Assembly: GCA_052147195.1 (NCBI GenBank)
Contig: JBKQLC010000114.1
Span: 450-64,449 of the forward strand
Length of the DNA stretch: 64,000 bases
Direction: 5' to 3'
DNA from: Syntrophobacteraceae bacterium
GTDB lineage: Bacteria > Desulfobacterota > Syntrophobacteria > Syntrophobacterales > Syntrophobacteraceae
Shown: piece after piece, positions 2,426 to 20,913 of the stretch
Numbering within the stretch: the stretch's first letter is position 1
Layout: every line of letters begins with the position of its first letter
The notes under the pieces: generated by a model
Databases searched by the model: none
The model's input: only the letters and a program-made list of their open reading frames with translations
Told to the model about the DNA's origin: nothing
Position numbers and translations under genes: made by a program

Positions 2426-3192
2426 AGCGAGCCGTCTTCTACCTCGTTGCGCTGCTTTGCAGCCTTGTTCTCCCCTTTTCTTTCGTTGCAGCCGCTTCCG
2501 CCGATCAGGAACTGATCGTTTCTGCGGCGGCAAGCCTGACCAACGCTTTCGGCGAGATCGGTAAAAAATTTGAGAGCGCCAATCCGGGGACGAAGGTGGT
2601 CTTCAATTTCGGGGCATCGGGCGCTCTTCTTCAGCAAATCGACAAGGGCGCGCCCGTGGACGTCTTCGCATCCGCCGACCAAAAGACAATGGACCAGGCC
2701 GCCGCGAAGGGCCTCATTATTTCCGGCACGCGCAAGGATTTCGTGAGCAACGAGCTGGTTCTCATCGTCCCGCATGGGACCAAGACCCCGGTCAAAACGC
2801 TGCCGGACCTCAACGCCAGTGGAATTGGGAAGATAGCCCTGGGTAACCCTGAAACCGTTCCCGCCGGTCGCTATGCTCAGGAGGTCCTAACCTACGAAGG
2901 GCTTTGGGACGAACTTAAGCCCAAGTTCATCTTCGGAGAATCGGTTAGACAGGTGCTGGATTACGTCAGCCGGGGCGAAGTGGATGCCGGTTTTGTTTTT
3001 GCAACAGACGCTGCGGTGGCGAAAGATCATGTCAGCGTAGCTCTGGAAGCCACGAAGCATAAGCCGATAACTTACCCGATATCGATTGTGGGTTCGACGA
3101 AGAACAAGGACCTGGCGAAACGATTCGTCGATTTCGTTTTGAGCAAGGAGGGCCAGGAGATCCTTTCCACGTATGGCTTCAAAAAACCCTGA
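2422..3192 (+). CDS. modA: Molybdate ABC transporter substrate-binding protein
   Basis: 256 aa with a signal peptide, then ELIVSAAASLTNAFGEIGKKFE...VVFNFGASGALLQQIDKGAPVDVFASAD...LGNPETVPAGRYAQEVL, typical ModA motifs. Confidence 0.9.
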   Translation: MKRAVFYLVALLCSLVLPFSFVAAASADQELIVSAAASLTNAFGEIGKKFESANPGTKVVFNFGASGALLQQIDKGAPVDVFASADQKTMDQAAAKGLIISGTRKDFVSNELVLIVPHGTKTPVKTLPDLNASGIGKIALGNPETVPAGRYAQEVLTYEGLWDELKPKFIFGESVRQVLDYVSRGEVDAGFVFATDAAVAKDHVSVALEATKHKPITYPISIVGSTKNKDLAKRFVDFVLSKEGQEILSTYGFKKP

Positions 3193-3193
3193 T

Positions 3194-3940
3194 ATGCTCA
3201 TCCAAGTCGATATAGAGAAAACGCTCTCTTCCCGCGGTAGACGCTTTGACCTCAAAGCGGCTTTTTCCTCGGTGGAGGGCTTCGTCGTCATCTTCGGCCC
3301 TTCCGGGGCCGGGAAGACGCTCACTCTTCAGTCCATAGCCGGGCTTCTTACCCCCGATTCGGGCACTATCATGCTCAGGGACAACGTTCTCTTCGATTCA
3401 AAGAGCGGGATCAACATACGTCCCCGGCACCGCAATATCGGTTACGTTTTTCAGGATTACGCACTTTTCCCTCATCTTACAGTTTTTGAAAATGTGGGCT
3501 TCGGTTTACGGAAAAGGTGGCCGCAACCCATCTCACGAGCCCATAGGCTAAAGGTTGAAGAATTCCTGGAAATCTTCGAGATTTCACACCTGGCGAAAAG
3601 TTTTCCCTTCGATCTGTCCGGGGGCCAGCGGCAGCGTGTTGCCCTGGCGCGGGCACTCATACGAAACCCGGATCTCCTGCTCCTGGATGAACCTTTTTCT
3701 GCCCTGGACACTCTTCTGCGGCAAAAGCTCCGCGCTGAACTCCTTGCGATTCAGACCCGTTTCAAAGTGCCGGTGATCATGATTACCCATGATCCTGAAG
3801 ATATCATGGCTTTTGCGGAAACACTGGTTACGTATGAGACAGGACGGGTATGCAGGGTGGATTCCTTCCTGAAGACAAATGGAGAGGATCTTTCGAATCA
3901 AGCCACCCTTCCCTGCTCGGAGAAATCCTTTACATACTGA
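3194..3940 (+). CDS. modC: Molybdate ABC transporter ATP-binding protein, short form lacking a C-terminal TOBE domain
   Basis: Walker A GPSGAGKT, signature LSGGQRQRVALARAL, Walker B LLLLDEP. The start is either ATG 3194 (TGAtATG coupling to modA) or ATG 3173 (track). Only ~250 aa, so there is no fused TOBE domain. Confidence 0.85.
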   Translation: MLIQVDIEKTLSSRGRRFDLKAAFSSVEGFVVIFGPSGAGKTLTLQSIAGLLTPDSGTIMLRDNVLFDSKSGINIRPRHRNIGYVFQDYALFPHLTVFENVGFGLRKRWPQPISRAHRLKVEEFLEIFEISHLAKSFPFDLSGGQRQRVALARALIRNPDLLLLDEPFSALDTLLRQKLRAELLAIQTRFKVPVIMITHDPEDIMAFAETLVTYETGRVCRVDSFLKTNGEDLSNQATLPCSEKSFTY

Positions 3941-7855: not shown

Positions 7856-8051
7856 CCCTCGGAACCATTTTTATTACCCGTTGCCAACTGTAACAAAGCA
7901 GATTCAATAAGCCTGTTCAATGGGAACCCGAGCATCCATATCCAGTTCAAATCGCCCGCAGGGGTTAAAGTGTTGAATTAGCAGCGGGCTCAGACGGCGG
8001 GATCGCGGGGCGTCATTCTTTTTGACCACTGTGGTTTTGATGCTGCCATCG

Positions 8052-9848
8052 CTAGCAGTTAGTCTCCCTGTTAAGTTCAGACTGGAAGCGCTTCAGGTCG
8101 GACGGCGAACCGTTTAACAACTTCACTTCGAGTGCCGAATGCCGATGGGCGAGCACGTTCAAGCAGCCATACTCCTGATCGATTTCAAAAAGATCTGCCA
8201 GAGACCGGCCAAGAGCCTGAGACAAAATGATTCGGTTGACGCCTGCGTGTCCCACGATGAGGATGTTTCCCCGTGTGGAGGTCAAAGTTTCATAGAAGGC
8301 CGGAATGACACGAAAGGTGCAGTCGAGAAAACTTTCTCCCTCGCCGGGGCGAAAGTGGACGATATCCAGGCCCCTTGCATGGAATTCCTCAGGGTGCCGC
8401 CTTCGCACTTCATCAAAGGTCAGGCCTTCCCATCGGCCAAGCGAGATCTCACGCAGTTCTCGCTTTGGAATGCATGAGATATGGTGCGGTTTGGCGATGA
8501 TTTGCGCCGTTTGCACGGACCGTTTCAAATCACTGCAGAATACTGCGGAGAGAGACGTGTCCCTTAAGCCTTCCGCCAATCGCTCGGCCTGCAGGAAACC
8601 TTCTTCAGTCAACGGAAGGTCTAACTGCCCGATGAAGCGTTTGGGATCAACCGGGGACTGAATGGCTCCGTGTCTCACCAGATAGATCGCCCTGCGGCTG
8701 CCCATGGACCCGGCCCTTATGCACCTTTCGTAGCGGCGGACCATATTGTCCACCGGACACCCAAGGAGGGCTTCGATGCGCTTGCCGATGTTTCTTGCCT
8801 CATCAAACCGTCTTACGATTTTCTTCAAGATGTCGGGCCGATCGGCATAACGGCTCATGGATCTTTCAAAACGCTCATCCAGGGAGACAATCCGGTCTTC
8901 CTCAACGCATTTGTCGGCAAAGTAGACGAGGTCAGCCTCATCCACGGATGGACCGCGCGACTGAATATCCATGTGTTTGGCCACGACGGCCCCAACACGC
9001 GGGTAGCCCATTTCGGCAATAAGCTTCGATCCAACCGCTGCATGGTCCGGCTGCCCCCTGGCAATATCGTGGAGTCTGCCGGCCGCAATGATCAAGGGAA
9101 GGTCTAACGCGAGACCCGTGGAATTCAAAAGCGCGGCAAGCGTCCGGGCAAGCTCGGCCACCACCATGGAATGGGCGATCACCTGCTCGGAAACTTTGAA
9201 CCGGGAGCAGACAGCCTCGCACTCTGCCTCCGTTGGAATACTTTCCCTCGACCGGCTCTCTACGAGTATTCGGTAATCCGACGGTGTATCGCAGTCCAGG
9301 AGAATGTTTTCATCTGCGACGTCTACGTCGACGGCGTTGGGTTCATAGGTGCCGAGGAACGCGGGCAATCCTCCGGGGTAGTCGGGTGACAGATCTTCTT
9401 TGAGATAAGCCGCCGGGATGAGCGGAGGATGGCCTCGCTCCCCTTTGAAGCGTGGGTAGATAATCTTTGGGCCGTCCAGATTGTAAACACTGAGGAGCGC
9501 ACGAATAGTTTGAGAATTGACCAGCGGGATATCGCAGGGAAGAAGGAAGAAGGCGTCCACGTCGGGTTCAAAGCTTTTCAGCCCCGCCAGCACGGAGGAA
9601 AACATCCCACGGTCGTATTGCGTGTTGAAGATCCATTTGATGCCCAAATGGTCCAGAACGGGCGTAAGTTCATCGGCCCTGTGCCCGACGACCACCCTCA
9701 CGTCCTCAATCCCTGCCCCGAGAAATCGCGTGACGGCCACCTCGATAAGGGTGGAAGTTCCAAGGGGCGCCAAGGGCTTGAAGCATCCCATCCTGGAGGA
9801 ATAGCCGGCGGCAAGAACCAGCGCAACGATTCGAGGCGGTTTTCTCAT
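8052..9848 (-). CDS. Three-domain fusion: MobA/MocA-like NTP transferase + HD phosphohydrolase + histidine phosphatase (CobC/GpmB-like)
   Basis: 598 aa. N-terminal domain: IVALVLAAGYSSRMGCFKPLAPLG (MobA-like nucleotidyltransferase). Middle domain: AAGRLHDIARG (HD motif). C-terminal domain: IYLVRHGAIQS...SDLKRSVQTA...GRWEGLTF...VGHAGV (RHG histidine phosphatase motifs). Confidence 0.8.
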   Translation of the reverse strand: MRKPPRIVALVLAAGYSSRMGCFKPLAPLGTSTLIEVAVTRFLGAGIEDVRVVVGHRADELTPVLDHLGIKWIFNTQYDRGMFSSVLAGLKSFEPDVDAFFLLPCDIPLVNSQTIRALLSVYNLDGPKIIYPRFKGERGHPPLIPAAYLKEDLSPDYPGGLPAFLGTYEPNAVDVDVADENILLDCDTPSDYRILVESRSRESIPTEAECEAVCSRFKVSEQVIAHSMVVAELARTLAALLNSTGLALDLPLIIAAGRLHDIARGQPDHAAVGSKLIAEMGYPRVGAVVAKHMDIQSRGPSVDEADLVYFADKCVEEDRIVSLDERFERSMSRYADRPDILKKIVRRFDEARNIGKRIEALLGCPVDNMVRRYERCIRAGSMGSRRAIYLVRHGAIQSPVDPKRFIGQLDLPLTEEGFLQAERLAEGLRDTSLSAVFCSDLKRSVQTAQIIAKPHHISCIPKRELREISLGRWEGLTFDEVRRRHPEEFHARGLDIVHFRPGEGESFLDCTFRVIPAFYETLTSTRGNILIVGHAGVNRIILSQALGRSLADLFEIDQEYGCLNVLAHRHSALEVKLLNGSPSDLKRFQSELNRETNC

Positions 9849-10030
9849 CTGCTTTTCCCGGCTCTGACCTGGATCAGTTCCGCCACGATGCTCACGGCGA
9901 TCTCCTCGGGCGTTTCGGCTCCAATATTGAGGCCGACAGGTGAAAAGTCAACGCGGGTGAACCCTTCATTGAAGAGTTTTGCCATACCTTTAAAGATACT
10001 CATGCAATCAACCTGGAGCAGTTTTTCCAT
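9845..10030 (-). CDS. Mini-protein equal to the C-terminal tip of an XdhC/CoxI-family maturation factor
   Basis: 61 aa. SPVGLNIGAETPEEIAVSIVAELIQVRAG matches the conserved end of the XdhC_C domain. The XdhC N-domain and most of the Rossmann part are absent. It has an ATGA overlap with the downstream gene and starts 12 bp after the upstream gene. Confidence 0.55.
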   Translation of the reverse strand: MEKLLQVDCMSIFKGMAKLFNEGFTRVDFSPVGLNIGAETPEEIAVSIVAELIQVRAGKSR

Positions 10031-10042
10031 ATCGAATGAGTC

Positions 10043-11353
10043 TCAGTCCCTCAAATCCAGCAGGACTCGTTTGGCGGTATTCCTCTTGCCGCTTTGCCCT
10101 TTGGGCAGAAGGCTTACATCCAAAGCGAGCGCTCCCTTCTGAAGAGCGGATCGTATCACCGGGACGACGTTCAGGGCCTCCTGAATTGCAGCAATGGTTT
10201 GCCGACTATCGGGCGTTGTCGCCTGAGCTTCGATCCGCAAACGATCAATGCCCGGCGCGCTCTCGAGCGAAGCGCTAAAATCCAGGACCCCTTCAACGGG
10301 GAAGATCGCCTCGTCGAGGTCCGTCATGGTCAACCGGCCGCCCTGTGCGATAGCTATCGAACACAGGCGGCTTTTGACCCGTGCAAGGGTTTTGAGCACA
10401 GTTCCACAGGGGCAAGGGCCCGGCACAAATCGGCTGACGTCGCCGGTGCGGTATCGAATAAGCGGCATTCCCCTCCGCGTGAGAGTCGTGAAAACCACCT
10501 CGCCGGGGTCTCCTTCCGAAACGGACCTTCCGGTTTCAGGGTCCACGATTTCAATATAGAGGTCCGCCTCCCGCAGATGATATCCGTTCCTTGCCTCGCA
10601 TTCAACACCGCCTCCAAAGCCCATCTCGGTCATGCCGTAATGGGTAAAAACCTCGCACCCCCAGATGCGCCGCAGCTCCGTCGAAACCGCATCCGGAACG
10701 TGATCGGCGCTCAAGAGCACGCTCCTTGGAGCAGCCGTCCCGCCGCTCAATCTTGCAAGTCCGAGCACCTGCGCCGGAATGCCCACCAGGGTGTCGATCC
10801 GCTCTTTTTCCATGACCTCCAACGTCCGGGGAGCCTCGCGGACAGGGCCGTGAGGGACGCCGACCGCACCTAACCGTTCAAGTCCCTTTACCAAAAGATC
10901 CCCGACACTGCCCGGAAGAGTTCCAGGCAGAAGAATCAGAACTCGGTCACCGGGGCCGGCGAGCGTGGACATGCCGTGATGGAAGAAATCGATGGTCCGT
11001 TCCTGATCGTCGATCGTAAAGAAAACACGCTTGGGTTCGCCTGTCGTCCCGGATGTTTGAAGCGTTACGACGCGGCTCACCTCACTTTGCGAGACGCAGA
11101 GAAACCTTAGGGGCTGCCGCCGTATGTCCTCCGCCGTCGTAAATGGAAATCGGGTGAGAGCCTCCAGGTCCGTCAGATCCTTCTGCGCGAGACCCGCCAG
11201 ATGCTCCCGGTAAAACGGACTGCCGGCTTTCGCCCAACCAATTGTTTCCCGAAGTTTCGCAAGCCGGAAGGTCTCGATTCGTTCCCGGCTCAGCCCGGTT
11301 CCGTTTGTGCCGATATGTCTCGAAATCCATGCTTCCAGCGGTGTGATCTTCAT
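10043..11353 (-). CDS. Adenylate-forming enzyme, phenylacetate-CoA ligase (PaaK)/coenzyme F390 synthetase-like
   Basis: 436 aa. TSGTTGEPKRVFF AMP-binding motif, PaaK-like size and N-terminal region, and a C-terminal YRTGD-type segment (IRYRTGDVS). Confidence 0.8.
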   Translation of the reverse strand: MKITPLEAWISRHIGTNGTGLSRERIETFRLAKLRETIGWAKAGSPFYREHLAGLAQKDLTDLEALTRFPFTTAEDIRRQPLRFLCVSQSEVSRVVTLQTSGTTGEPKRVFFTIDDQERTIDFFHHGMSTLAGPGDRVLILLPGTLPGSVGDLLVKGLERLGAVGVPHGPVREAPRTLEVMEKERIDTLVGIPAQVLGLARLSGGTAAPRSVLLSADHVPDAVSTELRRIWGCEVFTHYGMTEMGFGGGVECEARNGYHLREADLYIEIVDPETGRSVSEGDPGEVVFTTLTRRGMPLIRYRTGDVSRFVPGPCPCGTVLKTLARVKSRLCSIAIAQGGRLTMTDLDEAIFPVEGVLDFSASLESAPGIDRLRIEAQATTPDSRQTIAAIQEALNVVPVIRSALQKGALALDVSLLPKGQSGKRNTAKRVLLDLRD

Positions 11354-12756
11354 GCCGCTTCCCCGGTCGATCCTTTCCCCCTGCGGGAAAGGCCGGAACC
11401 GTTATCTCTGTAATAGGAACGGCCCTCGCTGTCCGTGATGTTATATGCGCAAAACGGGATCAACCGGCCATCCGGGTGCACTACGTGGATGCAGCAATCC
11501 TTCAGCCGGTCAAGGTCCAGATTCCATGCATCCTGGAAGGCCATTCCCGAAATGCAGAGCGAATGAGTTGCGGCCCGGTTCAAAAACTCGTCCCATCCTC
11601 CCAGGCTTTGGCCCTGGCAGCAGATGGAAGGGGCTTGCATTTCCTCCGGCCGCGACCAGAATTGGGTGACGAACCGGCGGGCTTTGGCGGCGCCTTCGGC
11701 TGCGAAAACAGGTTTACAGCCGCAATCTTTGGATTGGTGCTGCGTCCATGGCCGCAGTGCTCCATCGTTGAGGAGCACGAAGTTGCCATGGAACGAGCAA
11801 AGAGCGTTTTCGCATCCCGGAGGTTTGAAGTGCTCCGCCCTGATTCTCGCGCCTGTCTGGGTTTCAATTTCAGTGATGATTTCAGGGATGGTGATGCGGT
11901 CCTCATCCCCTGGCGGACCCGGGTATCTCCCGAAGTAGCTTACAGGCTGAAAGTGGACGCCCCGGATCGCGGGAAGCTCCTGAAACGCAAACTCGATAAT
12001 AGGTCCGATTTGATCCGTGTTCACGCCGGGAACGATTGTGGGAACGAGGACCACGCCGATGCCGTGCCCGGCACAGTGCTCGATGGCGAGCCGCTTCTCC
12101 CGAAGCAACTCCCGCCCGCGAAGCTTCCGGTAGACAGAGTCCTCAACACTGTCAAACTGAAGGAACACGGACGCAACGCCGGCATCCTTCAAGGCTTTCA
12201 CGTAAGAAGGGTCCTTTGCCAGCCGCAAACCGTTCGTGTTGATTTGAATGAACGAAAATCCCCTGGATCGTCCCAGAGCTACGATTTCCGGCAAATCATC
12301 CCGCAAGGTCGGCTCCCCTCCGGAGAGTTGCACATTGCATGGGCCGGCAACGAGGAGCAGCCGGTCGAATTGCTCCTTAAGGTCTTCCAGGGCCGGGTCG
12401 GCAGCATTTTTGTTTCCTGCATCGGCAAAACAGAAGGCGCATCGTAAATTGCAGCTTTGGGTTACCTCGATAAGGGCGGTGCATGTGTGCTGGCGATGTT
12501 CGGCGCAAAGACCGCAGTCCAGTGGACACCCTTTCTCAACGATTGTGGAAGGGTTCTCGGGGCGAGAGGGGGTTTTGGGCCTCACCCATGATGAGAAGGC
12601 GGGACGCCCACGCCAGATCACGGCCTCATGAGAACCGTGTTCCGGGCACGTCTTCCTGAGGAAGATCCGGTCTCCCCTGCCAACCCTCCGCGCAGGGACC
12701 ACTGCGAAACACTCCGGGCAGATGCTTTCCGTTTCCGAAAGAGAAATTTCTTCCAT
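11350..12756 (-). CDS. Radical SAM protein with N-terminal zinc-ribbon and Cys-rich C-terminal extension
   Basis: 468 aa. N-terminal CPEC...CPEHG ribbon, then the CNLRCAFC radical-SAM CxxxCxxC cluster motif. GGEPTL lies downstream, and the C-terminal half contains CGC, CC and other Cys. Confidence 0.85.
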   Translation of the reverse strand: MEEISLSETESICPECFAVVPARRVGRGDRIFLRKTCPEHGSHEAVIWRGRPAFSSWVRPKTPSRPENPSTIVEKGCPLDCGLCAEHRQHTCTALIEVTQSCNLRCAFCFADAGNKNAADPALEDLKEQFDRLLLVAGPCNVQLSGGEPTLRDDLPEIVALGRSRGFSFIQINTNGLRLAKDPSYVKALKDAGVASVFLQFDSVEDSVYRKLRGRELLREKRLAIEHCAGHGIGVVLVPTIVPGVNTDQIGPIIEFAFQELPAIRGVHFQPVSYFGRYPGPPGDEDRITIPEIITEIETQTGARIRAEHFKPPGCENALCSFHGNFVLLNDGALRPWTQHQSKDCGCKPVFAAEGAAKARRFVTQFWSRPEEMQAPSICCQGQSLGGWDEFLNRAATHSLCISGMAFQDAWNLDLDRLKDCCIHVVHPDGRLIPFCAYNITDSEGRSYYRDNGSGLSRRGKGSTGEAA

Positions 12757-13202
12757 TATAGACGCGCCTGGGTCAGGTCGAATCCGTTTTCAACCAGCAG
12801 ACTCTTAGCTTTCTCATAGACACCCATCACCAACGTCGGGCATCGCGCCGTACGGTTTTTCGGGTCGTCATCCAAAATGACGCTGCACTGGATACCGCCA
12901 TACCTTTCGCCGAATTCTCCGGAGAACCATTCAACCAGTTCAGAAATCATAAGATTGAGCTTTGGGTCCTCCTCCTCTTCCGGGACGCCTCTTCCGGCGT
13001 ATAGGCCCACAAGACAGGCCCCGCCCGTGAGCGCCCCGCAGACATCTCCGGAAAACCCCATCCCCCCCGCAAGGCCACTCATGGCTCTGATCAAGTCGGG
13101 ATCACTCTTTCCTTGCGCCTCCAGGCCCAGGAAAAGCAGGATTTGACTGCAATAGAAACCCTTTTGGGCCAGTTCAAGCATCCGGACCGTCTCGGTTGTC
13201 AC
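12756..13202 (-). CDS. C_GCAxxG_C_C family (putative redox-active) protein
   Basis: 148 aa. FYCSQ ... GDVCGALTGGACLVG ... CP pattern diagnostic of the C_GCAxxG_C_C family. TAATG overlap with the radical SAM gene. Confidence 0.85.
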   Translation of the reverse strand: MTTETVRMLELAQKGFYCSQILLFLGLEAQGKSDPDLIRAMSGLAGGMGFSGDVCGALTGGACLVGLYAGRGVPEEEEDPKLNLMISELVEWFSGEFGERYGGIQCSVILDDDPKNRTARCPTLVMGVYEKAKSLLVENGFDLTQARL

Positions 13203-13230
13203 AAGGATAGCTCCTCATCCGATTTAGGGT

Positions 13231-13983
13231 TCATACGCACCCGAGGCTTACGGGCTTCTTCTCCGCGATAGCAAGAAAATATCCGGGCTTAGCCCGGGAA
13301 ACCGCCCGCTCGATTCTAAGCGCATCGAGTGGTTCGCCGCCAGTTAGCGAACACCAGAACGACCGCGCAGATCCTTGTGAGAAGATTAGTTGAGCGGCAA
13401 ACTGTTTCAGCGCTGCAGAATGGTCCTCCCAAGTGGAAAAGGCAAATCCGCAGTCTCTGAGCTTGACCGTCAGTTCCTCAATAGATAATGCTCCGGTGAG
13501 GCAGCAGTCCATGGATAGTGCGCGAAGTTCCGGTATGGCTTCCGCATTCCGGACGTACACGTCGTTCAAAATCAGCCTGCCCCCGCCCCTTAGAACGCGG
13601 AAGCACTCCCGGAGAAACATTGGAGGATTTCGGGAGAGCGACAGGCTGCACTCGGCGAAGACGCCGTCCCATTGGGCATCCGGAAAGGGCAGGCTCTCTC
13701 CCGCCGCTCGCACGAGAGGTAGGAGACTGTTTCTTGCGTGCCCCTGCGCGATCATCGGCAACGAGGGGTCAACCCCCGCCGTAAAGAACCCGAACCGTCG
13801 GTTCAGGTGTTCCACCGTAGTCCCGGTCCCGCATCCCACGTCGAGAAGGCGGGAGCCGGGAGGAAACGCACATAGTGAAAGCGCTCGCTCCGTCAGCGCC
13901 ATCCCGCCCGGACGTATAAAACCGTCGGTAACTCCGCTTGCGGCAATTCGCTCATAGACCCCGCATTCGCCGAAGTTGGCCAT
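13231..13983 (-). CDS. Class I SAM-dependent methyltransferase
   Basis: LLDVGCGTGTT motif I and a Methyltransf_11-like layout. ATG 13983 is preferred over the TTG at 14001 used by the track. Confidence 0.8.
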   Translation of the reverse strand: MANFGECGVYERIAASGVTDGFIRPGGMALTERALSLCAFPPGSRLLDVGCGTGTTVEHLNRRFGFFTAGVDPSLPMIAQGHARNSLLPLVRAAGESLPFPDAQWDGVFAECSLSLSRNPPMFLRECFRVLRGGGRLILNDVYVRNAEAIPELRALSMDCCLTGALSIEELTVKLRDCGFAFSTWEDHSAALKQFAAQLIFSQGSARSFWCSLTGGEPLDALRIERAVSRAKPGYFLAIAEKKPVSLGCV

Positions 13984-14006
13984 GAGAACCCCTTTCCCCA
14001 ATGCGC

Positions 14007-14216
14007 CTACTTATCCTCGAGGAGCTTTTCGACTTCCGCGATCTTGCCGAGCGCAAGATCTTCAGGGATGAACACAAGTCCGCAGCCGGGGCATCTCAAC
14101 AAGTCCACCGGAAACTCATTTCCCAGGTAGGAGATGGGGACCTTTGCCATCTCCAGGGGGAGGCTGCATTTCGTGCACGACCAAATCTTTTCGTCGGTAC
14201 GCTCTTGCGGGATCAC
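14007..14216 (-). CDS. Small zinc-ribbon protein (CxxC...CxxC)
   Basis: 69 aa. WSCTKCSLPL...LLRCPGCGLVF. ATGA overlap with the upstream 787-aa gene supports translation. Confidence 0.6.
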   Translation of the reverse strand: MIPQERTDEKIWSCTKCSLPLEMAKVPISYLGNEFPVDLLRCPGCGLVFIPEDLALGKIAEVEKLLEDK

Positions 14217-16576
14217 GATTTCATGTCCTCGGCGATTTCCATGCGGTGGCTGTATGCGTTGTAAACGATGAATTCATCCCCGGCAATAGAGTATTCCACC
14301 CAGTACGTAACGCTTGCCGGTTTGTAGTATGCCAGGAAATGGCCGGTATTTCGGTTGAGGAGCCTGGACCCCGTTCTTTCGGAATAGTCGATCACTTGCT
14401 GCAGGTCCTCCACAAGGATCAGCCGTTCTTCCATGCGTTGCTGCACCTCATCGGAAATCTTCAGCCGAAGGGTTTGATACCCTTGCGCTTCAGCCATAGT
14501 CTCCCCCCACCACTCCCTGAGCATCGCGTTTTTCAACCGGACTCGGTTTTCATGCCGCTGCGAATAGACGGGACCTTTCCGCAAGGCGGCCTCGTCCCTC
14601 GGAGTTTCAAAAATGAGATCCAGAAGGTGAAGGGTACGCTTGCCGCTGAAGGCGAGATAATCCCGGCACATGGCGCAATAGGCCAGGTAGTCGAGCGAAC
14701 TCTCTTCGACGCGCCGTCGGATGACGCTCTTTGCGAGCTCCGGATTGGCGAAAAACATGAGCCCGCCATAGCCGCAGCATTCCGTCTTGTCGCGGCTCAA
14801 GGGCAGTTCTTCAATCTCAAAACCGATGCGGCGCAGGATGTTGCGCACGCTCTCCTGGATGGCGCTCTCATGCCGGGTGGTACAGGCGTCATGCACCGCG
14901 ATGACATCATGTTTCTGCGCTTTCACGCTTTTCGGCAAACCCAGGCTGTCCAGAGTCTCCCAAAGCGAAGTGATCGGGACATCCGGAAGATGGGCCTTAA
15001 AGATCTCATAGCAAGTCGAGCAGGCAAGGATCAGGCGCGAACTCCCCAGTTCCCGCCACAAGGCCAGGAAATCCCCCCTGGTGGATTGAAAAAGTTCGGC
15101 CCGACCCGACCAGTCTGCCGGGGCTCCGCAGCACCGGGACATGAATCCGACCCCGCCGGAGAGTTCCTTGGTGAGCAGTGTATAGACACTTTTTACATGT
15201 TCGGGGGCCGATGCGATGAGCTGGCATCCCGGAAAGAAAAGAAACCGGCTTTGCACGGTCCCGGGTTGATGGCGGGCAAAGGCGCATTTGTCGCCGTTGC
15301 TGAACAACATGTCCCGCAGGGGAAAGTCGTGGGCAGACGGCGGCATCCTCCCCTGGTTCACCATGGTTTCGCGGGCCGTTTTGCAAACCAGCCCCATGTG
15401 CAGATCTTCAGGACAGACCTCCCGGCACAACCCGCAGAGACTGCACGAATTGATGAGCTTGTTAGCATGGCGATGGCCCATGACGATGGAAAGGTTATTG
15501 TAGATCTGGCGCACGTACTTTTTGGGATAAGCGCGAAAGGTGTTGAGATATTCACAGACCTTGACGCATTCGAGACACTCGCATTGCAGGCATCTTGCGG
15601 CCTCGCGGGCAGCTTCTTCCCGCAAATAGCCCTGCCGGGGGTCGCTTACCGGCGTGGCCGGGAGCGGTGCGACGCCCTCCGTGCTCGTGTAGAGTCGAGT
15701 CGGAATTGAACCTTCGCCAGCGCGCGAGGCCGTCAAGGAGACTTTTTGCAGGAACCGGTCGATGGTGATGCCCGCAATCCGGCCGTCCGAAATGGAATTG
15801 ATCGGGGACCCTTCTCCTTGCGCCCGGCGGAGGCTGCCTCCCGCAAAGACACCTTCCCGGCTGCTTGCGAGGGTCACCGGATCGACGGCTATCCGCCCGT
15901 CAACCCCGGTGGCGAGGCCGAAAACATCGAGGGCCTGTGTACCGGGAGCGATATAAACGGCGTCAAAATCCCTGCAAAGATCCTCGAAAGAAATATCAAT
16001 CCCAACGGTGGTGTTCAACCGAACCTCGACTCCGATTCGCTCCAGAACATTCAAGTCCTTCGCAAGCACCTCCATGGGAAGTTTCTCTTCCGGAAAATGC
16101 CACAGGCTCCCCCCAAGGACCGCAGCCTTCTCGAATACCACCACCTTGAACCCTTTTCTTGCCAGATCGAAGGCGGCAGTCAGACCACTCAGACCGCCTC
16201 CCACAACGCCCACGCGTTTTTCTTTCCCGGGAAGCACGGCGATTTTTTCAGGAAGTTCAGAGGCGTAATCGAGACATGACTTTTCAATGGCAACGACGGA
16301 CAGGGGTTCCCCCGCTTCCTTCCTTTTGCAGACCGACCGGCATGGCTGGTCGCAAACCCGGCTGATGATTCCCGGGAAAGGGACAGTCTTCTTAAGGATT
16401 TTCGCCGCTTCCGTGAAGTTTCCCACAGCCGCCTGCGCCATCATGGCCCGAACGTCCACATGGACGGGACAGGCTGCGGCACAGTTGGGGGGCTGCTCCT
16501 GGATGCACCGGTCTTCCAGCCTGGTCAGTTCGTCTTTTTCCATGGTTCCGCAGAACTTCCTTCCGGTGAATGCCAC
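14213..16576 (-). CDS. Fusion oxidoreductase: GltD-like FeS/NAD(P)-FAD module + 4Fe-4S dicluster + two CCG (HdrD/GlpC-like) domains + C-terminal domain
   Basis: 787 aa. CAAACPVHVDV...CDQPCRSVC, then the dinucleotide fold VGVVGGGLSGLTAAFDLARKG. Ferredoxin-type CLQCECLECVKVCE and CSLCGLCREVCPE follow, then CCG-type Cys clusters (FFPGCQL..., CCG at MSRCCGAP, ECCGYGG). The start is GTG 16576 or ATG 16543. Confidence 0.85.
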   Translation of the reverse strand: MAFTGRKFCGTMEKDELTRLEDRCIQEQPPNCAAACPVHVDVRAMMAQAAVGNFTEAAKILKKTVPFPGIISRVCDQPCRSVCKRKEAGEPLSVVAIEKSCLDYASELPEKIAVLPGKEKRVGVVGGGLSGLTAAFDLARKGFKVVVFEKAAVLGGSLWHFPEEKLPMEVLAKDLNVLERIGVEVRLNTTVGIDISFEDLCRDFDAVYIAPGTQALDVFGLATGVDGRIAVDPVTLASSREGVFAGGSLRRAQGEGSPINSISDGRIAGITIDRFLQKVSLTASRAGEGSIPTRLYTSTEGVAPLPATPVSDPRQGYLREEAAREAARCLQCECLECVKVCEYLNTFRAYPKKYVRQIYNNLSIVMGHRHANKLINSCSLCGLCREVCPEDLHMGLVCKTARETMVNQGRMPPSAHDFPLRDMLFSNGDKCAFARHQPGTVQSRFLFFPGCQLIASAPEHVKSVYTLLTKELSGGVGFMSRCCGAPADWSGRAELFQSTRGDFLALWRELGSSRLILACSTCYEIFKAHLPDVPITSLWETLDSLGLPKSVKAQKHDVIAVHDACTTRHESAIQESVRNILRRIGFEIEELPLSRDKTECCGYGGLMFFANPELAKSVIRRRVEESSLDYLAYCAMCRDYLAFSGKRTLHLLDLIFETPRDEAALRKGPVYSQRHENRVRLKNAMLREWWGETMAEAQGYQTLRLKISDEVQQRMEERLILVEDLQQVIDYSERTGSRLLNRNTGHFLAYYKPASVTYWVEYSIAGDEFIVYNAYSHRMEIAEDMKS

Positions 16577-16634
16577 GCGGCGGAGACTATGGTTGCGTAC
16601 ACTGGATCGTAAAAAGCTTCAAAATAGGTGAAAG

Positions 16635-16666
16635 CTCCCTGCCGCCCTCAAGAAGGGGGCAGGGAG
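16635..16666 (-). terminator. Hairpin immediately downstream of the aldehyde oxidoreductase gene (terminator or attenuator inside the cluster)
   Basis: CTCCCTGCC(gCCCTcaagaAGGGg)GGCAGGGAG, a 9+4 bp stem. On the minus strand it is followed by CTTTCACCTATTTTGAAGCTTTTT. Confidence 0.5.
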
Positions 16667-16711
16667 TAATGGTTAAATGTTTTCAGAGCAGATGATCAAC
16701 CCCATGCCTTT

Positions 16712-19441
16712 TCAGCGTGCGGCCTTGGCTTCAAGGCCGGCCTTCACTTTCTCCGGCAGGGCCGGGAGCTTGGTGATGCGCACACCGCATGCATTGTAGA
16801 TGGCGTTGACAATGGAACAGTGGGGCGAAGTCAGCGGGAGCTCTCCCACGCCGGCCGCCCCGAAGGGACCGTGGAGGCGCGGAGTTTCCACATAGAGGAT
16901 ATTGAAGTTATCGGGGATATCCTTGATATACGGGACGCCGCAGGAAAGCAGCGAGGTATGCTTTTTGAGATCCTCGAAATCCTCAGAGAGCGCGAGTCCG
17001 ATGCCCTGGGCCACACCGCCGTAGATCTGCCCGTCCACCACGAGCCTGTTGTTGATCTTGCCAACGTCGGCCACAGTCGTAAACCCTTCGACTTTCACCT
17101 TGCCGGTCTTTACATCCACTGCGACTTCGCTCATGAAAACGCCGTACATGTAGACAGCGAAAGGCTTGCCCTGCCCGTTTTCGTCGCACGCCGAGTTCAT
17201 GGAGGCGGCCCACTTGCCGGCGTAGCGAACAGGGATCTTTTCCGCCATCATCTCGTCATAGGTGCGGTAGCCGCTGTTCGGTTTTTTCATAGCCGCAAGA
17301 AGCATATCGCAACCGCTCTTGATGGCATTGCCGGTCACAACCTGGCTGCGGCTGCCACCTGCGGGGCCGCTGTTGGGAGTGATGGCGGTATCGTTCATAA
17401 TCAGCTTGATTTTCTCGGGAGCGATCCCCATCGGGCGCAATGCTTCGTGTGCCGTGCCGAGGCACCCCATGTCGGCGCCCTGGCCGTGGTCCTCCCAGCT
17501 TGAATACACCGTGACGCCGTCCCCGGTGAGCTCAATGGCAACCTCGGAGGCATCAGGTCCGTCGAGGCCGCAGCCGTAGATGCCGATCGACACACCCACG
17601 CCCTTTTTGACCTCGGCCGTGGATTCGGCCTTAGCCTTCTCCTTTGCTTTCTGGTAGAGCGGCCGCATCTTGTCAATCATTTCCTTGAAGCTGAAGACTT
17701 CCGGCTCCTGGCCCGTCGGTGTGGTATCGCCGGGGCGGTATACGTTCAGGGCGCGCAGTTCCAGCGGGTCCATGCCGATCTTTTCCGCCAGCTCGTCCAT
17801 GAGCACCTCACTGGCGAGGAAGCTCTGGGGAGAACCGTAAGCGCGGAAGGCCGATCCCCAAGCATGGTTGGTGCACACCGTGCGGCCAAGACCCCGAATG
17901 TTAGGAATGCCGTAGCCGGCGCCTATGAATTGTGCTCCGCGCACGGTGAGAAGATCACCGAACTCGGAGTATGGACCATGGTCCACCAGCCAGTCGGATT
18001 CCATGGCAATTATTTTGCCGTTCTTGTCCGCGCCGTACTTGAGCTTGACGAAAAAGGGCGAGCGCTTGCCGGTATAGGTGATGTGCTGATAATAGTCGTA
18101 TCTGAGGAAAACCGGACGGCAGGTCGCCATGGCGGCCACCCCGACCAAAGCTTCCATGGTCGGGCTGAACTTGTAGCCGAACGTGCCTCCGGCGGGGTTT
18201 TGCACAAGGCGCAGCTTCTCGGGTTCTATACCGAGGCCGGGGCAGATCATGGCATGATGGAGGTGGATGCCTATACTTTTCGAGTGAATGGTGAGCCGTC
18301 CTTCCTCATCGAAATAGGCAAAACCTACGTCGGGCTCGATGGTCAGATGGGGCTGCCTCTGGAGGTAGAACTCGTCTTCTACAACGTAGGCGGCGGAATC
18401 CATGAGCGGTTTTGTCTCCCCGCCTTTTGCGATCTTCTGCTCGTAGTAGACGTTGGGCGTGCCGGGATGGATCTCGATGGCGTCATCGGCCATGGCCGCC
18501 GGAGCACTCATGTAGGCCGGAAGTTCTTCGAGCTTCACCACGACTTTTTCGGCCGCCGCCCTGGCGTTCTCCACCGTGTCGGCGCAGACGATAGCGATGG
18601 CGTCGCCGAACTGGAACACCTTCGTGTCGCAGAGGATGGGACGGTCCCAGCCGTCGCCCTTGTTCGTCGGGAAGGTGATGAGCCCCGTGATCCGGTTCTT
18701 CCCCTTGACGTCCTTATGGGTCACCACTTTGTAGACGCCCGGCATCTTCTCGGCTTCGGAGGTGTCTATGGAGAGGATATTGGCGTGGGACACTTTGGCC
18801 TGGACAAGCGCCAATTGCAGGGAGTCGGGGGGAAGCTTGAGCCCCAGATCCCCGCCGTAGTCGCAGGTCCCGGTTACTTTGGCCAGAGCGCTCGGACGCG
18901 GGTATTTTCCTCCCCAGATCTTGCCGTCCGCCGGAAGCTTGAAGGAGAGATCCTTTAAGCTTATTTCGCCCCTTATTACTCGCGCCGCATCCATCACCGC
19001 GTCAACCAGGGGTTTGTACCCCGCGCAGCGGCAAGCGTTCCGGTGGCTCTGAAACCAGTCACGCACGTCTTCACGGGTAGGCTTGGAATTTTCATCCAGT
19101 AGAGCCTTGGCGGAAACGATGAAGCCGGGACTGCAGAAGCCGCATTGTGCTCCACCGTGAACCATCCAGGACACCTGGAGAGGGTGAAGGTCATCCGGCG
19201 TGCCGATACCTTCGATAGTGGTGATGTCGGCGCCTTCCTCGACCTTTTTTATCTTGGTGACACAAGAACGGACTACTTTTCCGTCCATGATGACAGAGCA
19301 GGCACCGCACTGGGCCTGGCCACAGCCGACCTTGGTACCTGTCAGGCCGAGCTGTCCGCGCAGAACGTCCGCAAGGGAGGCTTCTGAGTTTGCGATAATC
19401 GTTCGAGGTACCCCATTGATGTTAAGGACCTTCTTCTCCAT
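16712..19441 (-). CDS. mop: Molybdenum (MCD cofactor) aldehyde oxidoreductase, Desulfovibrio gigas Mop type, with two N-terminal [2Fe-2S] domains
   Basis: 909 aa, colinear from memory with D. gigas MOP (907 aa). Shared segments include GLTGTKVGCGQAQCGACSVIMDGKVVRSCVTK, GGAQCGFCSPGFIVSAK, HRNACRCAGYKPLVDAVMDAA, ITFPTNKGDGWDRPILCD and GPFGAAGVGELPLTSPH. There is no FAD domain, as in Mop. Confidence 0.95.
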   Translation of the reverse strand: MEKKVLNINGVPRTIIANSEASLADVLRGQLGLTGTKVGCGQAQCGACSVIMDGKVVRSCVTKIKKVEEGADITTIEGIGTPDDLHPLQVSWMVHGGAQCGFCSPGFIVSAKALLDENSKPTREDVRDWFQSHRNACRCAGYKPLVDAVMDAARVIRGEISLKDLSFKLPADGKIWGGKYPRPSALAKVTGTCDYGGDLGLKLPPDSLQLALVQAKVSHANILSIDTSEAEKMPGVYKVVTHKDVKGKNRITGLITFPTNKGDGWDRPILCDTKVFQFGDAIAIVCADTVENARAAAEKVVVKLEELPAYMSAPAAMADDAIEIHPGTPNVYYEQKIAKGGETKPLMDSAAYVVEDEFYLQRQPHLTIEPDVGFAYFDEEGRLTIHSKSIGIHLHHAMICPGLGIEPEKLRLVQNPAGGTFGYKFSPTMEALVGVAAMATCRPVFLRYDYYQHITYTGKRSPFFVKLKYGADKNGKIIAMESDWLVDHGPYSEFGDLLTVRGAQFIGAGYGIPNIRGLGRTVCTNHAWGSAFRAYGSPQSFLASEVLMDELAEKIGMDPLELRALNVYRPGDTTPTGQEPEVFSFKEMIDKMRPLYQKAKEKAKAESTAEVKKGVGVSIGIYGCGLDGPDASEVAIELTGDGVTVYSSWEDHGQGADMGCLGTAHEALRPMGIAPEKIKLIMNDTAITPNSGPAGGSRSQVVTGNAIKSGCDMLLAAMKKPNSGYRTYDEMMAEKIPVRYAGKWAASMNSACDENGQGKPFAVYMYGVFMSEVAVDVKTGKVKVEGFTTVADVGKINNRLVVDGQIYGGVAQGIGLALSEDFEDLKKHTSLLSCGVPYIKDIPDNFNILYVETPRLHGPFGAAGVGELPLTSPHCSIVNAIYNACGVRITKLPALPEKVKAGLEAKAAR

Positions 19442-19477
19442 AACTTTTCTCCTGATCTGAGGTAAACGACAAACCTT

Positions 19478-20506
19478 TCAAGCACCCTTGGCGAAGCCAC
19501 AGTCCGGGTACCTGCACTCCTCGCAACGGACGCAAAGTCCACCGTGCGCCAATCCGACGATATCCCTGCGCGTGATCTCTTCACCGGCAAGCAGCCTGGG
19601 AAGAATCACGTCAAAGACGCTGGTCTTGTGGTACATGACGCATCCCGGAAGGCCCAGGAGGGGAACGTTCCCGAGATAGGCCAGCATGAACATGGCGCCG
19701 GGAAGAACCGGAGCGCCGTAAGTCACCACGCGTGCGCCTGAATTCCGGATGGCCGCCGGGGTAACGTCATCCGGGTCCACCGACATCCCGCCCGTGACGA
19801 TAATCATCTCCGCCCCCTGGCTCAAAAACGATCCTATCTTTCCGACGATCCGCTGCTGATCGTCGGACACAAAGGACTGCCCAAGAGTTCGGCACCCCAA
19901 TTCACTGAGTTTTTCACGAACGACGGGACCGAATTCATCCTTAATCCGGCCGTGGTAAACCTCGCTCCCGGTCGTAATGATGCCGACGTTGAAGCTCCTG
20001 AAAGGCAGGACTTCGATCAGCGGCTGATGCCGGGAACAGACATGCTCTGCGCGCTTGACCTTGGCCTCTTCTATGACCAGCGGAATCACGCGTATTCCGG
20101 CGAGCACCTTTCCCTTGGCAACCCTCTGGTTAGTGTGAAGGCTTGCGAATACAACCTCTTCGGCGTTGATCTCAAAGAGGGCCTCGAGGTCGATCTTCAG
20201 TAGCCCTTCAACGGTCGCTCTAAGCTCCACCTTGCCTTCGTTGGGCTCCGAGACCTCGATGTTTCTCCCGGCTGCTGCGCGGGCAATCAGAACAGTGGCT
20301 TCATCTTCATGTAGAAGACCGCTATCCTTTTGGATATCCCACGCATAGACATGCTCTTTTCCCATGCTGAGCAGTCGCGGAACATCCTCCTCCGTAAGGA
20401 TGTGGCCCTTTCTGAAGGCCGGACCCTTCATCCGCCCCGGAATAATCTGAGTCACATCATGACACAGCACCATCCCTATGGCACTCTGGACCGGAACCAT
20501 CTTCAT
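19478..20506 (-). CDS. Molybdopterin-binding (MoeA-like N-domain + MoCF_biosynth domain) protein
   Basis: 342 aa. SAIGMVLCHDV... N-terminus resembles MoeA domain. GIITTGSEVYHGRIKDEFGPVVREKLSELG...IIVTGGMSVDPDD is the MoaB/MogA/MoeA MPT-binding fold. Confidence 0.8.
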   Translation of the reverse strand: MKMVPVQSAIGMVLCHDVTQIIPGRMKGPAFRKGHILTEEDVPRLLSMGKEHVYAWDIQKDSGLLHEDEATVLIARAAAGRNIEVSEPNEGKVELRATVEGLLKIDLEALFEINAEEVVFASLHTNQRVAKGKVLAGIRVIPLVIEEAKVKRAEHVCSRHQPLIEVLPFRSFNVGIITTGSEVYHGRIKDEFGPVVREKLSELGCRTLGQSFVSDDQQRIVGKIGSFLSQGAEMIIVTGGMSVDPDDVTPAAIRNSGARVVTYGAPVLPGAMFMLAYLGNVPLLGLPGCVMYHKTSVFDVILPRLLAGEEITRRDIVGLAHGGLCVRCEECRYPDCGFAKGA

Positions 20507-20662
20507 GAGGTTCTCCTACAGGATTTACCGAAGGTATGGACAAACAGACATTGTGTCGTTAATAACACCATCCTTATGGCGCTCTAGACCGGAACGATGT
20601 TTATGACGTTCTCCTACCAGATTTAACGGTATGGATAAACGGACATTTTGTCGTTAATAACA
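20470..20662. repeat. Tandem ~95-98 bp duplication spanning the RBS and first 12 codons of the 19478-20506 gene. The upstream copy is decayed.
   Basis: Minus strand, copy A: GGAGAACCTC ATG AAG ATG GTT CCG GTC CAG AGT GCC ATA GGG ATG. Copy B: GGAGAACGTC ATA AAC ATC GTT CCG GTC TAG AGC GCC ATA AGG ATG. Each copy ends in the 35-bp motif. Confidence 0.85.
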
Positions 20663-20702
20663 TAATAGGTATGGACAAACAGGCATTATGTCGTTTATAA
20701 CA
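20533..20702. promoter_or_regulatory. Three direct copies of a 35-bp motif GGTATGGAYAAACRGRCATTNTGTCGTTWATAACA upstream of the Mop operon (candidate operator array)
   Basis: Copies at 20533-20567, 20628-20662 and 20668-20702, with 3-4 mismatches between copies. They start 27 nt upstream of the ATG at 20506 on the minus strand. A partial fourth match (CGTTATGTCCATGCAGACAT) lies near 20813. Confidence 0.6.
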
Positions 20703-20913
20703 CAATGAAGCGTAAAAAGACTTACTCACTCAAACAAAGTTGAAGCATTTCCGTTATCCGCAACCGATCTGCGGATGATGATCGAAACCCTTGCATCTTA
20801 TAATACTAAATTGGCGTTATGTCCATGCAGACATAGCGGCAAGCAAAAAAATAACGGCCACAAACCTGTTCTCGTTATTGACCATTATCGACAGTGCCCG
20901 CGGCCGCAAACCA

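Follow-up and report, generated by a model that had tools for sequence, protein, structure and literature searches.

A gene string around a Mop-type aldehyde oxidoreductase lies head to tail on the minus strand, at positions 8052-20506, of the 64-kb stretch of Syntrophobacteraceae DNA analysed here (contig JBKQLC010000114.1; "the window" throughout). The region is a further copy of the mop operon, DVU_1551 to DVU_1560 in Desulfovibrio vulgaris, whose neighbourhood is already curated; peculiar to this locus are the decay of an XdhC gene, a triple protein fusion and an upstream repeat array. We tentatively propose that the operon combines Mop with a dedicated electron-transfer partner, genes supplying its molybdopterin cytosine dinucleotide (MCD) cofactor, and a portable small-molecule tailoring set that would serve the redox-partner side and leave MCD itself unaltered. 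This set comprises the radical S-adenosylmethionine (SAM) enzyme TrsS, a PaaK-like ligase, a methyltransferase and a C_GCAxxG_C_C protein.

All ten open reading frames (ORFs) that an earlier note on this DNA, made from the sequence alone, had placed on the minus strand were found exactly where it put them (Table 1). The DVU_155x family names it gave are those returned by an NCBIfam profile search, and in the searches against NCBIfam and Pfam that it had suggested, Mop and seven accessory families scored above the curated cutoffs: 1100 bits for Mop (NF045668), 530 for NF045663, 60 for DVU_1557, 155 for DVU_1556, 103 for DVU_1555, 490 for TrsS (NF045646), 300 for DVU_1553 and 315 for DVU_1551. 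The exceptions were XdhC_rel_AOR (53.9 against 350 bits) and the MoeA-like protein, which has no dedicated model. The best-matching named proteins for the cluster come from Syntrophobacteraceae. The window shares its families with the D. vulgaris Hildenborough neighbourhood (NF045645, NF045646 and NF045663-NF045669), above cutoff and in the same order beside an NF045668 Mop; it differs in having a 61-codon remnant in place of XdhC and a 598-residue fusion of the nucleoside triphosphate (NTP) transferase-HD protein with the phosphatase. The Desulfovibrio gigas cluster likewise holds MoCF_biosynth, mop, flavo/CCG, DUF7479, methyltransferase, C_GCAxxG_C_C, TrsS, ligase, XdhC and histidine phosphatase genes, but unlike the window it also includes a nitroreductase and a HEAT-repeat gene, its XdhC is complete, and NTP transferase-HD is missing from it.

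The D. gigas enzyme was the first structure of the xanthine oxidase family, and purified Mop is a lone homodimer. The Mop of the window has two [2Fe-2S] domains, a hammerhead domain and two domains binding molybdenum cofactor (Moco) in one chain, with no flavin adenine dinucleotide (FAD) domain. It aligns with D. gigas MOP (1SIJ/1VLB) over residues 3-904 with 1476 bits and ~75% identity, aligns also with the Desulfovibrio desulfuricans enzyme, and keeps the GVGE active-site stretch of 1SIJ. Both the domain order and the profile score (1720 bits, at least 1100 being asked for) place it among the D. gigas-type enzymes. From the ~75% identity to a crystallised enzyme we infer that it contains MCD and oxidises aldehydes. 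In the D. gigas structure, at 1.28 Å, the pterin rings of MCD are very well defined; that enzyme needs no sulfido ligand, needs reductive reactivation, and has as physiological acceptor a flavodoxin described as 'putative' (Moura review, PMC10223205). DVU_1559, the D. vulgaris Mop, is well detected in proteomes (PMC10920352).

Conservation of the operon was assessed by a TrsS-anchored scan of species-representative genomes, which gave 80 loci out of at least 600 matches, and by a second scan of metagenomes with divergent TrsS queries, which gave 80 further loci. The first 80 come from Thermodesulfobacteriota, Chloroflexota, Bacillota, Campylobacterota, Acidobacteriota, Synergistota, Myxococcota, Pseudomonadota, Geobacter and one archaeon, and hosts of TrsS loci include sulfate reducers, syngas acetogens, gut Firmicutes and Chloroflexi (Anaerolineae). 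A seven-gene core of Mop, flavoprotein, DUF7479, methyltransferase, C_GCAxxG_C_C protein, TrsS and ligase, detected by tblastn with the window proteins, is present in 60 loci from at least nine phyla and is collinear with the window in 55 of them; 13 loci are collinear for all eleven pieces. Co-occurrence was counted in 80 TrsS loci with enough DNA on both sides, pterin enzymes being counted within 10 kb. There, TrsS was accompanied by the ligase in 78 loci, the C-terminal domain of the flavoprotein in 71, DUF7479 in 70, a CCG protein in 67, the C_GCAxxG_C_C protein in 66, the methyltransferase in 65 and any pterin enzyme in 66. Accessory genes equally frequent away from Mop, which the earlier note had named as a sign against its reading, are not what was found: 59 of the 80 loci have a xanthine-oxidase-family enzyme nearby and, from the Mop side, the core accompanied four of four mop genes (D. 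gigas, Desulfobacter curvatus, an Acidobacteriota metagenome-assembled genome and Desulfocurvibacter africanus). Since the D. africanus cluster keeps the six core genes and lacks XdhC, NTP transferase and phosphatase, the Moco chaperones are the peripheral genes; what stays constant is the TrsS set with the flavoprotein.

A hairpin separates mop from the genes that follow. It is real, as the earlier note had described: a 14-bp stem with one bulge precedes a T-rich tail, although by intrinsic-terminator criteria the strong stem is followed by an interrupted tail (CTTTCACCTATTTT). Compared with dinucleotide shuffles, the mop-flavoprotein spacer of the window has z = -2.3, and structured spacers recur at this junction, with 51 of 61 loci below z -2 and a median z of -3.9. 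The spacer sequences are unrelated between phyla while the structure recurs; a T-run follows the stem in many spacers and is clear in several other loci. A search of the whole window for a Moco riboswitch or other known RNA gave 0 Rfam gathering matches. The hairpin may be of the terminator, attenuator or mRNA-stabiliser type, as would be expected of a partial terminator or a stabilising 3′ stem, either of which would keep mop expression high and that of the downstream genes low. Such a terminator-like hairpin with a spacer of 135-168 nt could also mean that mop ends here and that the genes beyond it make up an operon of their own, functionally unconnected to mop. A gene order shared by 55 of the 60 loci, with nine or more phyla represented, comes close to refuting this, and the core is present at each of the four Mop genes sampled. 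The hairpin is also no border between unrelated operons because the Mop-specific XdhC and MocA-like genes lie downstream of it, and we regard a chance neighbourhood as extremely unlikely. Junctions elsewhere in the string are close. Most had been thought to overlap; four of nine do so (GTGA, TAATG, ATGA and ATGA), but the other five are gaps, three of 5-28 nt, one of 36 nt and the mop-flavoprotein spacer of 135 nt, or 168 nt when measured to the better-supported flavoprotein start, ATG 16543.

The protein encoded after the hairpin comprises Fer4_20, FAD-type Rossmann, 4Fe-4S dicluster and two CCG domains, followed by a C-terminal adaptor domain of ~90 residues that gave no significant match in Pfam. 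Its N-terminal part resembles NfnB/GltD-type modules. The architecture of a flavo/iron-sulfur (FeS)/CCG fusion, as first described, thus holds; the length of 787 residues is probably too great, the likely true start being ATG 16543, which gives 776 residues as in the closest relative, L081 (TrsS 90% identical). In L082 (6219-8548; TrsS 83% identical) the gene is split into ORFs of 269 and 497 residues that differ in reading frame, the cause being a frameshift or a sequencing error and not a selenocysteine codon. The DUF7479 protein is GTGA-coupled to the flavoprotein and forms one ORF with it in five loci, and in four loci the adaptor domain alone is fused to DUF7479, an arrangement seen at loci with AOR- and dimethyl sulfoxide (DMSO) reductase-type enzymes. 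At non-Mop loci a protein of ~160 residues, consisting of the last 90 residues of the flavoprotein plus DUF7479, replaces the large flavoprotein. The constant adjacency, the absence of an FAD domain from Mop, and the NfnB/GltD-like and Hdr-like modules suggest that the flavoprotein is the electron outlet of Mop. A comparable arrangement is the class II benzoyl-CoA reductase BamBCDEFGHI of Geobacter, where a low-potential pterin enzyme is wired to HdrD/HdrA-like CCG and flavin modules; unlike there, the pterin enzyme of the window belongs to the Mo-MCD xanthine oxidase family and its CCG and flavin modules share one polypeptide.

TrsS consists of Zn_ribbon_HMPTM (PF23545) and Radical_SAM (PF04055) domains, passes its family cutoff and carries two CX3CX2C motifs, C77-C81-C84 (77-84) and C102-C106-C109 (102-109). 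In a PDB sequence search it matched Tes/GDGT-MAS (7TOL) with 294 bits, the alignment covering residues 8-313 and 397-441, and a structural model superimposed on 7TOM/7TOL with TM scores of 0.72-0.73 at 32% identity. The two proteins are alike in their N-terminal metal ribbon, paired CX3CX2C motifs and overall fold; they differ in a middle region (residues ~314-396) that is unaligned by sequence and in gene context, which for TrsS is one of soluble redox enzymes and not lipid synthesis. Assignment as the Tes tetraether lipid synthase was rejected, with 368 against 450 bits (NF045702) and only profile positions 2-319 of 486 aligned. More than 7,800 proteins, Tes-like relatives among them, matched TrsS at E ≤ 1e-20. 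JGI automated names for close TrsS homologues (P0025-P0028, P0052 and P0066) are either 'tetraether lipid synthase' or '7,8-dihydro-6-hydroxymethylpterin dimethyltransferase'; both are unsupported by gene context, and such misnamed proteins could mislead lipid-biomarker surveys relying on Tes homologues.

TrsS appears in a list of selenoprotein families in a passage of PMC13188914 that cites Haft & Tolstoy 2025, mSystems 10:e0141724, for the naming. The family name admits cysteine forms, and the protein of the window is one of these as opposed to the selenocysteine form: its complete ORF has no in-frame TGA, so a selenocysteine form in the window was rejected. Across the first 80 loci, neither TrsS nor its neighbours showed a cysteine-aligned in-frame TGA, and the TrsS stops near residue 450 are natural ends, not selenocysteine codons.

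The ligase is ATGA-coupled to TrsS and matches PaaK 4R1L with 143 bits; identity as a PaaK phenylacetate-CoA ligase was rejected (136 against 646 bits for TIGR02155). A degenerate, non-catalytic enzyme was suspected from a naive motif count and dropped once the alignment showed the C-terminal Lys428 to be conserved. Since the P-loop, the RYRTGD hinge and this lysine are all retained, the ligase should adenylate its substrate. The C_GCAxxG_C_C protein is all-helical, with invariant Cys18, Cys63, Cys106 and Cys121 and a Gly-rich loop. A PDB sequence search gave no match, and a Foldseek comparison of its AlphaFold2 model (pLDDT 78.5) with the PDB returned nothing below E = 1. An adenylating enzyme, a radical SAM enzyme, a methyltransferase and a Cys-rich protein do look like small-molecule or cofactor tailoring, as the earlier note had supposed; the part of that idea which does not survive is the restriction to Mop.

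The same TrsS set is found beside AOR/BamB-type and DMSO-reductase-family enzymes, or with no pterin enzyme within 10 kb, and so is not "specific to this oxidoreductase". Among the 80 well-flanked loci, seven have another pterin enzyme instead of one from the xanthine oxidase family and 14 have none within 10 kb; the TrsS proteins in these contexts all pass the curated TrsS cutoff. The AOR/BamB group (L042, L069, L085-L088) pairs a tungsten-type AFOR_N/AFOR_C enzyme of 656-671 residues with an FeS subunit of 176-180 residues. At L087 this pair is followed by HdrD-like and HdrA-like proteins in the BamBCDE pattern, so that BamBCDE-like genes adjoin the TrsS set. The DMSO-reductase-family group comprises L036, L038, L092 and L093; one such locus has an XdhB-type FAD subunit, MoeA and MOSC, beta-oxidation genes and an FmdE protein are found at another, and the best NCBIfam match of one of these enzymes is formate dehydrogenase alpha, under its cutoff.

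Gene fusions bear on how the parts of the set relate to each other. TrsS and the ligase form one ORF in three loci, and 'solo' TrsS proteins without a neighbouring set (L029 9968-12145 and P0110) carry a C-terminal DUF5714 domain, which matches the 'metal-binding double selenoprotein MbdU' model with 118 bits. The sole secondary Pfam match of DUF5714 is C_GCAxxG_C_C (E = 0.0063), and hhalign pairs the same motif region (E = 0.074); a comparison of DUF7479 with the DUF5714 zinc ribbon gave no signal. These fusions argue for joint action of TrsS, the ligase and a C_GCAxxG_C_C-like domain, the chemistry of the ligase suggests that the substrate carries a carboxylate, and the adaptor-DUF7479 fusions point to a set plugged into the electron-transfer protein. 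On this basis we propose a low-flux tailoring pathway for the redox-partner side.

In the proposed scheme, Mop would turn aldehydes into acids at the Mo-MCD centre and pass the electrons through its two [2Fe-2S] clusters, as homology predicts. The FeS-flavin-CCG protein, with its adaptor domain and DUF7479, would be the dedicated redox partner, standing in for the missing FAD domain of Mop. The MoeA-like protein, XdhC (decayed here) and the MocA-like NTP transferase-HD-phosphatase would make and insert MCD. Homology and fusions offer strong support for the catalytic and cofactor-supply layers; the role of the TrsS set is the weakest part. Here the PaaK-like enzyme would adenylate a small carboxylate, which would probably be passed on as a thioester, with either coenzyme A (CoA) or the Cys-rich C_GCAxxG_C_C protein as acceptor. 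C-H radical chemistry on the substrate by the Tes-like TrsS might follow, and the DVU_1556 enzyme would methylate it. What results would be a group, dissociable or bound to a partner, that low-potential pterin oxidoreductases need on their electron-transfer side; MCD itself would stay unchanged. With the hairpin after mop, Mop would be abundant and the accessory proteins scarce. A comparable toolbox serves synthesis of the FeGP cofactor of [Fe]-hydrogenase (Hcg), which draws on radical SAM, NTP transferase, SAM methyltransferase and adenylating enzymes together with a Cys-thioester protein; the resemblance to the TrsS set is an analogy only, with homology no deeper than superfamily and no Hmd.

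Several observations weigh against this scheme. A tight stoichiometric Mop-flavoprotein complex is unlikely, given that purified Mop is a homodimer on its own and that the hairpin precedes the flavoprotein gene. Dehalococcoidia loci have a CCG protein, a methyltransferase, one or two TrsS copies and the ligase but no pterin enzyme within 10 kb, and two of them (L052 8573-11353 and L056 10001-12777) carry two tandem TrsS paralogues plus a major facilitator superfamily (MFS)-type transporter. The relation between DUF5714 and C_GCAxxG_C_C is suggestive only, both signals being weak. Non-Mop loci sit in CoA-ester metabolism, among BamBCDE-like, 3-hydroxyacyl-CoA dehydrogenase, enoyl-CoA hydratase and aldehyde dehydrogenase genes; these surroundings and the iron-containing alcohol dehydrogenase genes beside six Mop loci fit a catabolic reading equally well. 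The literature searched held no experimental data on any accessory protein, which makes substrate, product and client alike matters of deduction.

In such a catabolic reading, the acid made by Mop or an AOR-type enzyme would be converted to a CoA thioester by the PaaK-like ligase and transformed by TrsS and the methyltransferase, all of them pathway enzymes and not maturation factors. The ligase is indeed the most constant partner of TrsS (78 of 80), and its chemistry uses the product class of Mop. The AOR/BamBCDE-like and DMSO-reductase-type loci lie amid 3-hydroxyacyl-CoA dehydrogenase, enoyl-CoA hydratase, short-chain dehydrogenase/reductase and aldehyde dehydrogenase genes, an iron-containing alcohol dehydrogenase gene also sits next to mop in Desulfobacter curvatus, and the MFS transporter of the Dehalococcoidia loci would suit a pathway. 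However, a radical SAM enzyme uses one SAM per turnover, which suits low-flux biosynthesis better than bulk catabolism; translational coupling ties XdhC and the MocA-like gene into the string; the hosts, from sulfate reducers and acetogens to gut Firmicutes and Anaerolineae, are metabolically very diverse; and a conserved attenuating hairpin parts abundant Mop from the other genes. We consider this catabolic reading unlikely.

The dependency could also run in reverse, the pterin enzyme and the FeS/flavin/CCG protein forming a low-potential electron supply for TrsS, whose product would be unrelated to Mop. This would accommodate partner enzymes of different families that are all low-potential types (Mop, AOR/BamB-type and DMSO-reductase-family), the physical fusion of the adaptor domain and DUF7479 to the electron-transfer protein, the absence of anything unusual in purified Mop, and sets that exist without a pterin enzyme. 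However, Mop is a major, highly expressed protein (DVU_1559, PMC10920352), which is excessive for one radical SAM enzyme; a flavodoxin or ferredoxin is normally enough; and Mop-specific Moco chaperones share the operon. A mere electron supply for TrsS is thus improbable in our view. The catabolic and 'Mop feeds TrsS' explanations each account for part of the data.

The strong form of the earlier note's idea was that the set tailors the cofactor of Mop, or installs a labile Mo ligand lost on aerobic purification. TrsS is kin to a pterin-methylating radical SAM enzyme, as judged by Zn_ribbon_HMPTM in Pfam and the JGI names, and the set accompanies pterin enzymes of all three superfamilies. XdhC and MocA-like genes are in the same gene string, and D. 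gigas Mop is odd in working without the usual sulfido ligand and needing reductive reactivation (PMC10223205). Yet D. gigas has the full set in its genome and the 1.28 Å structure shows ordinary MCD (PMC10223205), so the accessory enzymes leave no visible mark on the purified enzyme; the set also occurs with no pterin enzyme nearby. Pterin tailoring of MCD was therefore rejected as lead hypothesis, and a modified Mop cofactor seems very unlikely. A bolder reading holds that TrsS, the ligase, the methyltransferase and the C_GCAxxG_C_C protein build a new non-protein group that low-potential Mo/W-pterin systems of all three superfamilies would require for electron transfer or activation. We regard this as doubtful but worth stating. 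Candidates for the group are a small molecule tethered as a thioester, a modified thiol mediator and a labile metal ligand, and if the idea is true a new cofactor or maturation pathway would lie beside a 30-year-old model enzyme. A solved function could supply the missing redox partner of Mop, uncover new radical SAM chemistry in a Tes-like scaffold, and account for an accessory set common to Mo and W enzymes of three superfamilies.

Published work touches the system at a few points. Clostridium ljungdahlii carries two tandem sets of Mop, FAD/CCG oxidoreductase, four-Cys protein and C_GCAxxG_C_C protein; the first set is transcriptionally up on syngas and/or H2/CO2, and a study of its redox role was called for (PMC5640608). 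These two four-gene sets fit four structural partners served by shared enzymes; no duplicated four-gene units were found among the loci scanned here. A sigma-54 regulon study defined a MopR regulon, its function unassigned there (PMC6615313), and sigma-54 activators adjoin 14 of our loci. In the Mop literature searched, no mention of the six genes after mop was found; a search by DVU locus tags retrieved DVU1559 as the sole tag, in two papers, a proteome supplement listed none of the accessory proteins, and no fitness or mutant data for the accessory genes were found.

The genes for cofactor supply show the most variation. The "XdhC-tip mini-protein" of the earlier note is not a mini-protein in its own right: the 61-residue ORF matches only the last 44 of 346 model positions, with ~45 homologous C-terminal codons, and was rejected as an XdhC chaperone, its XdhC_CoxI and XdhC_C domains not being complete. 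Full-length XdhC occupies this position in L082 (350 residues, between ligase and NTP transferase), L001, D. gigas and others; L081 retains ~28 homologous codons with no start codon (12720-12825), and no second XdhC was found elsewhere in the 64-kb window. The 'tip' is thus what remains of a deleted gene, and XdhC is being lost stepwise in this lineage from an operon that is otherwise intact and translationally coupled. Together with the D. africanus cluster, which lacks the gene, this decay is a hint that Mop of this type can do without XdhC, in keeping with the sulfido independence of the D. gigas enzyme. XdhC, NTP transferase-HD and phosphatase are dispensable neighbours, absent from the D. 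africanus cluster, partly absent from that of D. gigas and decayed here, while the six core genes stay.

The 598-residue protein contains NTP_transf_3, HD and His_Phos_1 domains. Identification of its first domain as a MocA cytidylyltransferase was rejected at 123.9 against 186.45 bits (TIGR03310), and the phosphatase part falls just under the cutoff for CobC alpha-ribazole phosphatase (155.9 against 162.9 bits, TIGR03162). A histidine phosphatase is conserved in the neighbourhood of 31 of 56 loci; the triple fusion occurs in seven, and elsewhere the phosphatase is separate or undetected. XdhC and NTP transferase-HD form one ORF (Desulfobacter curvatus; L165), which supports a functional link of the NTP transferase to Moco insertion and ties the two maturation functions together as in PaoD/MocA systems. 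XdhC/PaoD and MocA maturation, as in Escherichia coli PaoABCD and Rhodobacter capsulatus xanthine dehydrogenase, is alike in placing an XdhC-family chaperone and a MobA-like NTP transferase beside the enzyme. Those systems have no radical SAM enzyme, ligase, methyltransferase, C_GCAxxG_C_C protein or CCG flavoprotein, and the window NTP transferase, below cutoff against their MocA (124 vs 186 bits), adds HD and phosphatase domains. In the MoeA-like protein, MoCF_biosynth is the sole domain found in NCBIfam and Pfam, the N-terminal 170 residues having no domain match; a homologue precedes mop in 23 of 56 loci and also lies 5′ of mop in D. gigas, D. africanus and an Acidobacteriota metagenome-assembled genome.

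Table 1 Features of the mop operon and its surroundings in the window.
Feature	Position	Strand	Basis
MoeA-like molybdopterin-binding protein, 342 aa	19478..20506	-	MoCF_biosynth domain, residues 175-305
Mop-type aldehyde oxidoreductase, 909 aa	16712..19441	-	NF045668 1720 bits; Pfam architecture
GC-rich stem-loop with T-rich tail, mop-flavoprotein spacer	16635..16666	-	folding
Flavo/FeS/CCG protein, 787 aa (776 from ATG 16543)	14213..16576	-	NF045663 1058 bits; Pfam
DUF7479 / DVU_1557-family zinc-ribbon protein, 69 aa	14007..14216	-	DVU_1557 family 99 bits
DVU_1556-family class I SAM methyltransferase	13231..14001	-	NF045667 245 bits
DVU_1555-family C_GCAxxG_C_C protein, 148 aa	12756..13202	-	173 bits
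TrsS radical SAM enzyme, Cys form, 468 aa	11350..12756	-	NF045646 692 bits
DVU_1553-family PaaK-like adenylating enzyme, 436 aa	10043..11353	-	NF045666 481 bits
Decayed XdhC remnant, 61-aa ORF	9845..10030	-	C-terminal homology only
DVU_1551-family MocA-like NTP transferase + HD + CobC-like histidine phosphatase, 598-aa fusion	8052..9848	-	416 bits; Pfam
Upstream tandem array, 98-nt unit x2.1, probable operator array	20477..20706	-	repeat structure
ModB-ModA-ModC molybdate ABC transporter (context)	1730..3940	+	same neighbours in L081
Helix-turn-helix + molybdate-binding-type (PBP_like) regulator (context)	110..1219	-	L081 homologue: HTH_3 + PBP_like

The array 5′ of the MoeA-like gene consists of 2.1 tandem copies of a ~98-nt unit. 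It holds three copies of a 40-nt imperfect palindrome (TTAACGACAnAATGTCnGTT) and carries a decayed copy of the ribosome-binding site and first codons of the MoeA-like gene. An array of this kind, with three or more units, also occurs in L081, and the array in the window is probably an operator array.

The GC fraction is 0.56-0.59 in the cluster (window positions 8001-20000) against 0.50-0.54 in the flanking 2-kb windows. Horizontal acquisition of the cluster is possible, consistent with this shift and with the cross-phylum distribution. On the plus strand, a 642-residue GH13-type glycoside hydrolase gene (TreZ/GlgB-like; 5927-7855) lies between the cluster and a 334-residue gene and is absent from that place in L081. 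On the other side, a minus-strand ORF of 104 residues (20914-21228) corresponds to the C-terminal 99 residues (87% identity) of a 176-residue L081 protein with a weak PAS_3 match and the Cys motif 'LPICSHCKKIR...HGVCPEC'; its N-terminal part seems to have been lost in the window. A 384-residue protein encoded at 21398-22552 on the minus strand combines a papain-like Peptidase_C70/C39-like domain with a fibronectin type III domain and seems to have no connection with the operon.

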